From NCBI RefSeq assembly GCF_030013205.1, contig NZ_CP122648.1: a DNA stretch of 64,000 nucleotides; one strand, written 5' to 3'. Source of the DNA: Escherichia coli. GTDB taxonomy: Bacteria > Pseudomonadota > Gammaproteobacteria > Enterobacterales > Enterobacteriaceae. Under the pieces are notes generated by a model. That model had not been told where the DNA came from. It did no database searches and saw only the letters and a list, made by a program, of their open reading frames with translations. Every line of letters begins with the position of its first letter. Positions within the stretch are counted from its first letter, which is position 1. A program made the translations under genes and the position numbers. Shown here piece after piece: positions 23,792 to 57,009 of this stretch.

Positions 23792-23849
23792 TAAAAAGGG
23801 CAGCAGAGCAGTCACGGAGTAAAACTGATACCGCCAAACGTCACCAGAA
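23792..23849 (-). ncRNA. dicF: DicF small RNA (ftsZ-targeting)
   Basis: Reverse complement reads TTTCTGGTGACGTTTGGCGGTATCAGTTTTACTCCGTGACTGCTCTGCTGCCCTTTTT, between ydfC and dicB as in K-12. Confidence 0.75.
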
Positions 23850-27604: not shown

Positions 27605-27938
27605 ATACAGCGAACTCCATTGGTTTAGTTGGATATTTACTGTGCTGGACAAAAACGGTTTGCGGGGAAATCTTAGTTAAGTAGAATGACTGCGGGTGCT
27701 TGAGGCTATCTGCCTCGGGCATGGACACCAACGGCAGATAGAGAAAAGCCCCAGTTAACATTACGCGTCCTGCAAGACGCTTAACATTAATCTGAGGCCA
27801 ATTTCATGCTAGACACATGTAGGTTAGCCTCTTACGTGCCGAAAGGCACGGAGAAGCAGGCTATTGTTAACACCAAGTTGTAATGTCCCCTTTGAACCAT
27901 TCTAAAATGTCCCCAGACAATTCTCTGGGGGATTTTTC

Positions 27939-34596: not shown

Positions 34597-34896
34597 AAAA
34601 ATTCCTTAATACTGATAACTTGGCGCACTATACACACGTTCCTGAAGAAAGCTATAGTTTTTTGATGGGGTTGAAGATGGCTGGATGTCTAAAATAAACA
34701 TTGCTTCATATGTTCAACTATGCGTTAATGATTGCGTCGGTTTGAAGAACAGACGATATACGAAGTAGTTTACTAAAGCAGTTCTCATTTCAGGTGTTAT
34801 TCACTTATTCCTTCTTTGAGTCTCTCCAATTAAGTACGAAGTCGTTTCTGTTATGCAAACCATTTATGCCGAAAGGCTCAAGTTAAGGAATGTAGA

Positions 34897-35112
34897 ATGT
34901 CAAATAAAATGACTGGTTTAGTAAAATGGTTTAACGCTGATAAAGGTTTCGGCTTTATTTCTCCTGTTGATGGTAGTAAAGATGTGTTTGTGCATTTTTC
35001 TGCGATTCAGAATGATAATTATCGAACCTTATTTGAAGGTCAAAAGGTTACCTTCTCTATAGAGAGTGGTGCTAAAGGTCCTGCAGCAGCAAATGTCATC
35101 ATTACTGATTAA
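34897..35112 (+). CDS. cspB: cold-shock protein CspB
   Basis: 71-aa [54 protein letters not shown]... Confidence 0.9.
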
Positions 35113-35475
35113 AATTCATCGCTCGTCTGTATACGATAACGAAGAAGGCTGATGCCTGAGTAGAGATACGGACAGAGTAGTGAATATTGGATCTCTTTAA
35201 TAAAAAGTAAGGAGGTCCAATACATGAAACAATGGCTAGCATATTTGGCAAAATCTTAATCAGGAAAAGTATGCTAACCATTGTGGTGAAGTGCAGGTTT
35301 GCTGAATGAATAGTTTTACAGCAGAAGCTAACTGCTGGCATGGCAAAACAAAGTGCGTAAGTGGATGACTCCCACAAAAAGCACCACAATCTCAAACCCG
35401 CTCAGGCGGGTTTTTTATTATCTGCTTTAAATATATTATTAAAATATAAAAAATACTTGTTACTAATAAAATCAA

Positions 35476-37421: not shown

Positions 37422-37782
37422 GGTAATATTAAATCGGAACATTTACATCGCGGAATGTAAAATTTAAATAAAAAGGACTCTTCCATGAGCCAAAATTCCT
37501 GAAATCTTAAGGGTAAGATAAAAGGTCTTAATCAGAATGACACGTTTTATTAATAAATAAAGCTATTCTTTCATTGCTGTGTTTTTCTTTACAAAAGTAA
37601 TCCTTGCTATGGGTGGTTAATCATGCGTTAATGGTGTTCTGGTTTGTTACAAATTTATCTGAAGCAGTCATTGTTATAATTTTATTATTTGTACCTCTTG
37701 AGATTTCCTTGTTGGTTTTTCTCTCTGATATTTTTTTCGGACCATTCTGCCCAAGGGCTAATTTCTTCAAAAGGTAATAATT

Positions 37783-37995
37783 ATGTCTAACAAAATGACT
37801 GGTTTAGTGAAATGGTTTAACCCTGAAAAAGGTTTTGGTTTCATCACGCCGAAAGATGGCAGCAAAGATGTGTTTGTCCATTTCTCAGCAATTCAGAGCA
37901 ACGATTTCAAAACATTAACTGAGAATCAGGAAGTTGAATTTGGTATTGAGAACGGACCTAAAGGTCCTGCCGCTGTTCATGTAGTGGCGCTTTGA
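37783..37995 (+). CDS. cspI: cold-shock protein CspI
   Basis: 70-aa [54 protein letters not shown]... Confidence 0.9.
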
Positions 37996-38197
37996 GGTAG
38001 ACAATATTACAAACCATATTCACTTTAGATGCCCGTGTTGTCATGGTTCCCAGTATAGAACATCATCTTTTGATGTTTCTGACATGAATCCTTTCGGGGC
38101 AAAATGTATCTTTTGTAAATCAATGATGATTACATTTGATAATATTTCACAATACTTAAATGCCAGCCGTCTGTCGTTGGATTTGAAAAAGTGAAAA

Positions 38198-43904: not shown

Positions 43905-44479
43905 TGGCATTCAGAATGAGTGAACAACCACGGACCATAAAAATTTATAATCTGCTGGCCGGAACTAATGAATTTATTGGTGAAGGTGATGCATATATTC
44001 CGCCTCATACAGGTCTGCCAGCAAACAGTACCGATATTGCACCGCCAGATATTCCGGCTGGCTTCGTGGCTGTTTTCAACAGTGATGAGTCATCGTGGCA
44101 TCTCGTTGAAGATCATCGGGGTAAAACGGTTTATGACGTGGCTTCCGGCGACGCGTTATTTATTTCTGAACTCGGTCCGTTACCGGAAAATGTTACCTGG
44201 TTATCGCCGGAAGGGGAGTTTCAGAAGTGGAACGGCACAGCCTGGGTGAAGGATACGGAAGCAGAAAAACTGTTCCGGATCCGGGAGGCGGAAGAAACAA
44301 AAAACAACCTGATGCAGGTAGCCAGTGAGCATATTGCGCCGCTTCAGGATGCTGCAGATCTGGAAATCGCAACGGAGGAAGAAATCTCGTTGCTGGAAGC
44401 ATGGAAAAAGTATCGGGTATTGCTGAACCGTGTTGATACGTCAACTGCACAGGATATTGAATGGCCAGCACTGCCGTAG
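43904..44479 (+). CDS. tfaQ: tail fibre assembly protein
   Basis: 191-aa [57 protein letters not shown]... Confidence 0.9.
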
Positions 44480-54490: not shown

Positions 54491-55381
54491 ATGATCAAGA
54501 AGACAACGGAAATTGATGCCATCTTGTTAAATCTCAATAAGGCTATCGATGCCCACTACCAGTGGCTGGTAAGTATGTTTCGCAGCGTAGTCGCGAGAGA
54601 TGCCAGTAAGCCAGAAATAACGGATAACCATTCTTATGGACTGTGCCAGTTTGGTCGGTGGATTGATCATCTGGGACCACTCGATAACGATGAATTACCT
54701 TATGTTCGGCTAATGGATTCTGCCCATCAACATATGCATAACTGTGGTCGGGAATTAATGCTGGCTATTGTTGAAAATCACTGGCAGGACGCGCATTTCG
54801 ACGCCTTTCAGGAAGGGGTGCTTTCTTTTACTGCGGCATTAACCGATTACAAAATTTATTTGCTGACGATCCGTAGCAATATGGATGTTTTGACGGGATT
54901 GCCGGGTCGTCGGGTTCTTGATGAATCCTTTGATCATCAGTTACGCAACGCTGAGCCTCTGAATCTTTATTTAATGTTGTTGGATATTGACCGATTTAAA
55001 TTGGTTAATGATACCTACGGGCATTTAATCGGCGATGTAGTATTACGCACCCTGGCAACTTACTTAGCCAGTTGGACGCGCGATTACGAAACGGTTTATC
55101 GCTACGGTGGCGAAGAATTTATCATTATTGTCAAAGCGGCTAATGATGAAGAAGCATGTCGTGCAGGTATCAGAATTTGCCAGTTAGTCGATAACCATGC
55201 CATCACACATTCTGAAGGGCATATCAACATTACCGTGACAGCAGGTGTGAGTCGCGCATTTCCTGAAGAGCCTCTGGATGTGGTCATTGGAAGAGCGGAC
55301 CGGGCAATGTATGAGGGTAAGCAAACCGGAAGAAATCGCTGTATGTTTATTGACGAACAAAACGTGATTAACCGAGTTTAA
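54491..55381 (+). CDS. dgcZ: zinc-regulated diguanylate cyclase DgcZ (CZB + GGDEF)
   Basis: ORF 54485..55381; RYGGEEF GGDEF-type active site; N-terminal CZB-type His/Cys residues. Confidence 0.9.
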   Translation: MIKKTTEIDAILLNLNKAIDAHYQWLVSMFRSVVARDASKPEITDNHSYGLCQFGRWIDHLGPLDNDELPYVRLMDSAHQHMHNCGRELMLAIVENHWQDAHFDAFQEGVLSFTAALTDYKIYLLTIRSNMDVLTGLPGRRVLDESFDHQLRNAEPLNLYLMLLDIDRFKLVNDTYGHLIGDVVLRTLATYLASWTRDYETVYRYGGEEFIIIVKAANDEEACRAGIRICQLVDNHAITHSEGHINITVTAGVSRAFPEEPLDVVIGRADRAMYEGKQTGRNRCMFIDEQNVINRV

Positions 55382-55429
55382 GCTCCGTTTAACATTCATT
55401 GAGAAAACTGATGCTACTGTGTCAACGAT

Positions 55430-55527
55430 CCGTTATCAGTGCAGGAAAATGCCTGTTAGCGTAAAAGCAAAACACAAATCTATCCATGCAAGCATTCACC
55501 GCCGGTTTACTGGCGGTTTTTTTTCGC
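55430..55527 (+). ncRNA. candidate small RNA ending at an orphan terminator (possibly MgrR)
   Basis: Strong + strand terminator CCGCC-ggtttact-GGCGG-T8 at 55497..55527 with no upstream ORF in the dgcZ-mgtS intergenic region; 5' end not defined. Confidence 0.4.
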
Positions 55528-55599
55528 CGTCATAAAAATCAGGCCCCTTGTACACAGTTGTAACAAGGGGCCGGTTAGGTGAGGGATTATCTCCGTTCA

Positions 55600-55695
55600 T
55601 TAGTCATCCCATTTGTGGCTGAAATACGCGGCCAGAAAACCAGAAAATAAAATTATTCCCAGTACGGCCATAAAAACATTCATATTACCCAGCAT
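55600..55695 (-). CDS. mgtS: small membrane protein MgtS (YneM, 31 aa)
   Basis: Manual translation MLGNMNVFMAVLGIILFSGFLAAYFSHKWDD with GGAGG 7 nt upstream; below the ORF-track cutoff. Confidence 0.8.
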   Translation of the reverse strand: MLGNMNVFMAVLGIILFSGFLAAYFSHKWDD

Positions 55696-55821
55696 TATTT
55701 GCCTCCGTTTATGGTGTGGTGTGTTTCCTCGCTTACCTTAATTTTCATCTCAATGAGAAAGATATTAGCAGAGGTAACCTAAACGAAGGCTGAATTAAAT
55801 TTTTATTGTGTTCGACTTAAA

Positions 55822-57009
55822 TCAACAAAGCGCGGGCTGCCCCCACGGTCTTGCACGAATTCCTTTTAACATAAGCACCCACGCAGCAATGATCACCAAC
55901 GCTAAGATGATAAACAGCGAGAAAGGCGGCAGACTGGTAAGCACTATGCCACTCACTAATGGGTTAATCGCCGCACCAAGCCAGCCTAAAGACTGGGCGG
56001 AAAAATAGCTGGCTTTCATTCCTGGCGGCGCAATATGGTCAATCAACATATACTCGCCCGGCGCATAAATGATTTCACCGACAGTAAATACCGCAGCTGA
56101 CATACCCCACAATAGCAGGCTGTTGCCGGAAAAAATAAAACCAACCAGACCGATGACGAAACAGAGGGTGCCTGCTGTCATCAGCGCGCGGATGTTAGCC
56201 GGGTTAAGGCGGCGGCCCACGGAATATTGCAACGTAACTACCATGGCAGCATTAACCGGAAGAACAACCGCAACCACCTTTTCGGCAAAATCCCCATCAG
56301 CAATCACCATCACATATTGTGAAATGCACGAGGCAAATGCGCCGCTAACAAAGGAAGCCAGAAAACCAGAGCAGGTAAACCACAACAGTGCTTTATCTTG
56401 TAATAAAACTGTCGGCGACCAGGCACTGCCTGTTTCCGTGGCGATGATTTTCTCGCTGCGCTTTACCCAAATTTGAATGAAAAGCATGGGAAACGCGGAA
56501 CAGATAGCTGCCAGCCAGAAGGGCAGATTGATGCTCTGCATCACCAACAACGTGCCGAGCGGCGGACCGATGGTCCAGCCAATGTTTAGCATGGTGTAGT
56601 TGATTGAGAAGATTTTCGTTTTGCTGGTGGAGGAAAGATTGTCGGCAAACCAGGCTTTCAACACGGTAGCAAAAACGGAATAGGCGCAGTTAATAAGGGC
56701 AAAAAAGAGCACCACCAGCGTCACGTTATTCACTAAAGGAATGGCAATAAAACCGCTGGCGAAGGCGGTAATTGCCAGTAACATATAGCGTTTCTTGTCG
56801 AACTTATCCGCCAGGATACCAAAACCGAGGCTAAAAACGACGCCAATAGTGAGCGCAATTGTCATCGCATAACCGATTAGATCGACACTCAGGCTGTACT
56901 GGCGACTCAAGTAAATGGTCATAAACGGCAGCGTAGCGCCGCGTCCGATGGTTAATAACAACGACGAGGCAAGAAGGGCGCTGGTAGAGCGTCGTAGGGA
57001 TAAGTTCAT
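55822..57009 (-). CDS. ydeE: MFS exporter YdeE
   Basis: 395-aa 12-TM ORF MNLSLRRSTSALLASSLLLTIGRGATLPFMTIYL... Confidence 0.9.
   Translation of the reverse strand: MNLSLRRSTSALLASSLLLTIGRGATLPFMTIYLSRQYSLSVDLIGYAMTIALTIGVVFSLGFGILADKFDKKRYMLLAITAFASGFIAIPLVNNVTLVVLFFALINCAYSVFATVLKAWFADNLSSTSKTKIFSINYTMLNIGWTIGPPLGTLLVMQSINLPFWLAAICSAFPMLFIQIWVKRSEKIIATETGSAWSPTVLLQDKALLWFTCSGFLASFVSGAFASCISQYVMVIADGDFAEKVVAVVLPVNAAMVVTLQYSVGRRLNPANIRALMTAGTLCFVIGLVGFIFSGNSLLLWGMSAAVFTVGEIIYAPGEYMLIDHIAPPGMKASYFSAQSLGWLGAAINPLVSGIVLTSLPPFSLFIILALVIIAAWVLMLKGIRARPWGQPALC

Follow-up and report, generated by a model that had tools for sequence, protein, structure and literature searches.

The dgcZ–ydeE region and the identity of MgrR

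The window, i.e. the whole 64,000-nucleotide stretch of the Escherichia coli contig NZ_CP122648.1 that was analysed, contains a locus bounded on one side by dgcZ (ydeH), encoding a diguanylate cyclase on the + strand (54491..55381; NCBIfam NF007380, 521 bits), and on the other by ydeE, encoding an MFS exporter on the − strand (55822..57009; NCBIfam NF007472, 797 bits), both identifications being backed also by the synteny with E. coli K-12. Between them lies mgrR (55427..55524, + strand), the gene for a 98-nt Hfq-dependent small RNA recognised from the alignment with K-12 mgrR (b4698) and from a match to the Rfam family STnc560. It is faced on the − strand by mgtS (yneM; 55600..55695), preceded upstream by ydeE and coding for a 31-residue inner-membrane protein (NCBIfam equivalog NF033842, 80.6 bits; the same as in K-12), and by mgtT (55496..55600), an ORF of 34 residues annotated both in K-12 (b4775) and by PGAP. 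The gene order dgcZ > mgrR > < mgtT < mgtS < ydeE, established from the ORFs, the NCBIfam matches and the K-12 feature table, is that of K-12, the RefSeq record of strain MG1655 listing at the syntenic site ydeE, mgtS, mgtT, the ncRNA mgrR (“small regulatory RNA MgrR”) and dgcZ. MgrR of K-12 has reportedly been characterised by Moon and Gottesman in 2009, and its gene, curated in K-12, is an already known and ordinary feature.

The original prediction, made by reading the raw sequence, had focused on a strong + strand terminator of the form CCGCC-loop-GGCGG-T8, considered an “orphan” with no ORF upstream and situated in the same intergenic region as the 31-residue mgtS, and had proposed a small RNA convergent with mgtS, expecting it to be MgrR. 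These claims agree with the present results: the terminator scan places the terminator at 55498-55524, dgcZ ends at 55381 with no credible + strand ORF following it, mgtS is found where it had been placed, the convergent orientation is evident from the ORFs, NCBIfam, the K-12 feature table and the literature, and K-12 mgrR, when aligned, maps to 55427..55524 and not elsewhere. A real small RNA was thus correctly recovered from an “orphan” terminator, although that label reflects only that the first reading was made without annotation. Both ends of the RNA need to be shifted by 3 nt, since its 5′ end is 55427 instead of 55430 and the U-run ends at 55524 instead of 55527. The span proposed at that time, 55430-55695, holds most of MgrR as well as mgtS, but begins 3 nt downstream of the 5′ end of the RNA and leaves out the promoter altogether; also within it are a second hairpin (55542-55572) and mgtT, neither of which had been mentioned.

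The assignment of 55427..55524 (+) as the gene for MgrR, a class II small RNA which acts in trans, depends on Hfq and belongs to the low-Mg2+ regulon of PhoQ/PhoP, may be regarded as practically certain. In the spacer alignment, 97 of the 98 bases are the same as in K-12 mgrR, the sole difference being T4C at 55430 (C in the window, T in K-12). This position is unpaired in the predicted fold, and C is commonly found there in Citrobacter, Salmonella and Enterobacter, as in most other genera of the ortholog alignment; the derived allele is therefore the T of K-12. In addition to neighbours and orientation, the gene in the window has the promoter, seed, ARN motif and terminator in common with MgrR of K-12. 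A scan of the whole window with Rfam yielded a full-length + strand match (55393-55606) to RF01407 (STnc560, “Hfq binding RNA”), covering model positions 1-214 of 214 with 280.2 bits (E 5e-64; gathering score 55). It should be pointed out that the limits of this 214-nt model differ from those of the RNA, since the model reaches 34 nt upstream of the MgrR transcription start and 82 nt beyond the terminator, taking in the mgtS terminator hairpin and the start of mgtT. In Salmonella, STnc560 was described as an RNA of ~90 nt from the ydeI/ydeE spacer, opposite the mRNA of yneM (= mgtS), with a 29-fold enrichment in Hfq co-immunoprecipitation (Sittka et al. 2008, PMC2515195). The literature search found no paper tying the names MgrR and STnc560 together; the two are equated here because of the location, size and Hfq binding given by Sittka et al. 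(2008) together with the Rfam match.

The 218-bp spacer with mgrR is present in 5414 of the 5426 complete E. coli genomes. As far as its annotation is concerned, the PGAP-annotated RefSeq genomes of E. coli (H1-H59) have mgtT under this spacer and lack the mgrR ncRNA feature, which, among the RefSeq records compared, is listed only in the curated one of K-12. The missing mgrR in the PGAP annotation of most E. coli genomes is a gap in the annotation pipeline and not evidence of absence; with PGAP delivering mgtT and not mgrR for thousands of E. coli genomes, any pipeline dependent on it will miss MgrR.

Promoter, fold and terminator of mgrR

Orthologous loci were collected by an exact match to the 20-nt seed, taking one genome per species, which returned 67 loci from Escherichia, Citrobacter, Salmonella, Enterobacter, Lelliottia, Leclercia, Kosakonia, Pluralibacter, Phytobacter, Yokenella, Silvania and Huaxiibacter; the invariance of the seed in this set is circular, since the loci were picked by it, whereas the upstream region was outside the query. 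In the alignment, the pattern YGTTTA-N5-YRTTKA, a distance of exactly 12 bp and TGnTAnnnT are shared by 58 of the 63 distinct orthologous loci, which represent more than 12 genera. The search for a PhoP box upstream of the RNA, suggested along with the original prediction, was thus successful: in the window, the conserved box is CGTTTA-ACATT-CATTGA (55386..55402, +; −41 to −25 from the transcription start), defined by ortholog conservation, and the extended −10 element, conserved as TGnTAnnnT across the orthologs, is TGcTACTGT (55412..55420, +). A box ending ~12 bp before the −10 element is the canonical arrangement of PhoP-activated promoters. The transcription start, positioned according to the 5′ end of K-12 mgrR, is the G at 55427, located 7 nt downstream of the −10 element. 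That PhoP binds at 55386-55402 may be inferred from the published PhoQP dependence. The sigma-70 promoter scan gave nothing at mgrR, the −35 match being missing, which is to be expected for an activator-dependent promoter without a −35 element.

One more PhoP-like half-site, AGTTTA (55375..55380, +), overlaps the stop codon of dgcZ and is, in this form, restricted to Escherichia. The resulting GTTTA-N6-GTTTA at 55376-55391 is the only one in the 64-kb window, versus 0.14 expected. The pair AGTTTA-N5-CGTTTA (55375-55391) was rejected as the PhoP box, its upstream hexamer not being conserved in register outside Escherichia; the ortholog alignment and the 12 bp to the −10 element set the conserved pair one half-site downstream (55386-55402). 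The hexamer at 55375-55380 may represent a third half-site.

The predicted fold of MgrR (z −2.5) consists of a 5′ stem-loop, an unstructured centre and the terminator, the 5′ stem-loop (55431..55461, +) being present in both the MFE and the centroid folds. The indel-rich 5′ part of the orthologs precludes a consensus fold—RNAalifold applied to 64 orthologs recovered the terminator only, the indels scrambling the alignment of the 5′ hairpin—and these parts were therefore folded sequence by sequence, which gave, in 54 of 54 distinct ortholog 5′ parts and despite their divergent sequence, a hairpin with 7-15 pairs and a median energy of −11 kcal/mol. The fold predicted here for the RNA agrees with the arrangement obtained by RNase probing of MgrR, i.e. 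a stable stem-loop at each end, the 5′ one included, and a poorly structured centre (PMC6239178).

Within the centre, two elements follow each other. The first one, the A-rich (ARN)5-like motif AAAAGCAAAACACAAAU (55463..55479, +), is the distal-face site for Hfq characteristic of a class II small RNA (PMC6239178); it is the same as in K-12 and largely conserved in the ortholog alignment. The second one, UAUCCAUGCAAGCA (55481..55494, +), is the seed U55-A68, known as the pairing region from the literature (PMC6239178), and the published RNA numbering is consistent with the window, G41 corresponding to 55467 and both U55 and A68 falling on the correct bases. The seed is unpaired in the predicted MgrR fold and forms with the 5′ region of eptB—that of K-12, the strain’s own eptB being outside the window—a duplex of −16.8 kcal/mol that spans the AUG between −8 and +9, in agreement with the published MgrR site, which overlaps the eptB start codon (PMC6239178). 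Only this seed-restricted duplex is meaningful, because the full-length RNAduplex value of MgrR versus eptB, −49 kcal/mol, was equalled by 56 of 500 shuffles and is uninformative. As regards related systems, the class II Hfq small RNAs ChiX, CyaR and McaS resemble MgrR in having the U-tail on the proximal face and the ARN motif on the distal face of Hfq (PMC6239178), but are unrelated to it in their sequences, regulators and targets.

The intrinsic terminator (55498..55524, +) has a stem-loop at 55498-55517, ACCGCCGG-TTTA-CTGGCGGT, whose 8 pairs include 6 G-C ones; next to it, according to the terminator scan, comes TTTTTTTT, and the U8 tail (55517-55524) represents at the same time the proximal-face site for Hfq. 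The terminator is not a chance hairpin, since it is kept with a U8-9 tail in 64 of 64 aligned Enterobacteriaceae sequences and one of its stem pairs covaries (A-U in 40 and G-C in 19 of the 64). That the hairpin acts as a shared bidirectional terminator, with the main role of stopping the − strand transcription of mgtS-mgtT, is very improbable. An A8 tract does precede it on the − strand side and the mgtT stop codon (55496-55498) is positioned at its foot; on the − strand, however, the hairpin is followed by GAAUGCUUGC, and as the U-run is missing there, it is not primarily the mgtS terminator. Moreover, mgtS has its own stronger hairpin with U5 (55572-55534), and a bidirectional function would add a role and not replace MgrR.

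Even less credit can be given to the explanation that the hairpin with U8 is a mere dgcZ terminator and no independent RNA is made. It would fit with dgcZ being on the same strand (stop at 55381) and with no other + strand terminator occurring between dgcZ and 55498, and dgcZ read-through probably ends at the MgrR terminator, too. Nevertheless, MgrR is not just the 3′ UTR of dgcZ, because the conserved PhoP box and extended −10 element sit between the dgcZ stop codon and the RNA, and because the RNA is kept where the upstream gene is not dgcZ, such as in the Salmonella ydeI/ydeE spacer and the Enterobacter loci; a separate 98-nt RNA is, in addition, given in both the K-12 curation and the literature. 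A small + strand protein in place of a non-coding RNA is hardly conceivable, since of the two ORFs appearing in the mechanical ORF list, the 38-residue one with GTG (55419-55535) starts at 55419, upstream of the transcription start at 55427, and the 25-residue one with ATG (55486-55563) starts within the seed without a Shine-Dalgarno sequence and extends beyond the terminator, while the 5′-part indels in the ortholog alignments are not multiples of three and neither ORF has support in the literature.

The convergent mgtS-mgtT unit

MgrR, read from the + strand, and mgtS are transcribed convergently and both are PhoQP-dependent (bioRxiv 10.1101/2021.06.30.450655). RNA folding predicts for mgtS an intrinsic terminator located inside mgtT (55534..55572, −), composed of a − strand hairpin at 55572-55542 (−24.7 kcal/mol, z −3.7), which lies 36 nt before the mgtT stop codon, and U5 at 55538-55534. 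On the basis of this fold, the element probably serves as the terminator of mgtS; the Rfam STnc560 model includes the hairpin 55542-55572 as a + strand one. The Salmonella yneM mRNA, being only ~190 nt long (PMC2515195), is roughly consistent with termination at 55572-55534. At the other end of the unit, a putative mgtS promoter (55762..55796, −) was noticed by eye, consisting of AATTCA-N5-CGTTTA (55796-55780), 12 bp and TGcTAATAT (55770-55762); the spacing from half-site to −10 element is the same as in mgrR, and the upstream half-site AATTCA is weak.

The ATG of mgtT and the stop codon of mgtS have 1 nt in common (TAATG), and the last 29 nt of mgtT are antisense to the 3′ end of MgrR (55496-55524). 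MgtT of the window is the same as that of K-12 in 33 of 34 residues, with V15T as the substitution. According to published work, its translation has been detected by Ribo-RET (ribosome profiling), tagging and PIRT-seq, its transcription is PhoQP-dependent within an mgtS-mgtT operon, and neither deletion nor overexpression gave a phenotype. The overlapping ATG, in the form of TAATG or TGATG, is kept in 35 of 35 mgtS-linked Enterobacteriaceae loci. Across the same 35 loci, the ORF can be as short as 7 codons or exceed 60; a length of 34 residues is confined to E. albertii and the loci of the E. coli type, and E. whittamii has 30 residues. As a protein under selection, mgtT is doubtful because a hairpin with U5 lies inside the ORF, the length is variable, the conserved N-terminal “NRPLV” falls on the hairpin stem and no NCBIfam model matches it; as such, it looks Escherichia-specific and not under long-term selection. 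With the predicted mgtS terminator inside mgtT, MgtT could be made in full length only if transcription passed this terminator.

It is conceivable, albeit rather unlikely, that the two convergent PhoP-activated units are coupled in cis via mgtS-mgtT read-through. Transcripts passing the hairpin 55572-55534, if it is leaky, would be perfectly antisense to the 3′ end of MgrR over at least 29 nt (55496-55524), and such read-through could titrate or destabilise MgrR, or its transcription could collide with that of MgrR. In that case, the Escherichia-specific 34-residue mgtT ORF, instead of coding for a functional protein, might arise as a by-product of read-through or serve to sense it. The literature search yielded no description of a coupling of this kind between mgtS-mgtT read-through and MgrR.

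Mode of action and variation of the locus

All the sequence elements needed by the published mechanism of MgrR are intact in the window; what was obtained here is the identity, the synteny, the conserved architecture of the promoter, the conservation of the hairpins and the complementarity of the seed to eptB, whereas for the dependence on PhoQP, the binding to Hfq and the repression of targets the literature is the source. The literature is likewise the source for the accumulation of a ~98-nt Hfq-bound RNA at low Mg2+, known for K-12 and Salmonella. Induction of mgrR takes place via PhoQ/PhoP at low Mg2+ and Ca2+ (PMC6239178; bioRxiv 10.1101/2021.06.30.450655). Phosphorylated PhoP would bind the direct-repeat box at 55386-55402, which would stand in for the −35 element, and RNA polymerase would be recruited to the extended −10 element (55412-55420) so as to start at G55427; transcription halting at the intrinsic terminator would give the 98-nt RNA. 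As a class II small RNA, MgrR touches both faces of Hfq (PMC6239178), which would grip it via the 3′ U8 tail on the proximal face and the A-rich ARN motif on the distal face. The single-stranded seed (55481-55494) would then pair across the start codon of eptB, and also with ygdQ and other targets, thereby blocking translation. Base pairing of MgrR has been reported to repress eptB, encoding the Kdo phosphoethanolamine transferase, and ygdQ (PMC6239178; bioRxiv 10.1101/2021.06.30.450655). The repression of eptB would mean less phosphoethanolamine added to the Kdo of LPS and a changed sensitivity to polymyxin; deletion of mgrR increases the resistance to polymyxin B about ten-fold (PMC6239178; bioRxiv 10.1101/2021.06.30.450655).

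The surroundings of mgrR vary among the related loci. In E. coli 2016C-3878 (L001, locus 1922-2893), the mgrR spacer is 100% identical to that of the window. Strains with a 100%-identical spacer have ftrA beyond mgtS, versus ydeE in both the window and K-12, i.e. it is the right flank that varies. The pairing of mgrR with mgtS is not universal, other genes being present downstream in some loci: those designated L006, L011, L017, L023 and L042, as well as other loci of Enterobacter, Lelliottia and Leclercia, carry mgrR with the PhoP promoter, with mgtS not adjacent. Enterobacteriaceae bacterium RIT691 possesses two MgrR copies (L015, 1407-1507 and 3001-3101) ~1.6 kb apart, the conserved PhoP-box promoter being present at one of them and missing at the other. 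Enterobacterial mgrR-mgtS sequence was also encountered under the names of a Caldithrix MAG (L008, with the K-12 mgtT allele), Chryseobacterium sp. 18061 (L059) and a Proteobacteria MAG (L013), most likely as a result of contamination or mis-binning.

Finally, the Rfam scan of the window gave matches to DicF (23798-23849, −), sok (27694-27865, +), two cspA-type 5′ UTRs (34736-35128 and 37638-38022, both +) and IS009 (44247-44445, +). Taken together, these matches suggest that a cryptic prophage resembling Qin lies upstream of mgrR, as in K-12.
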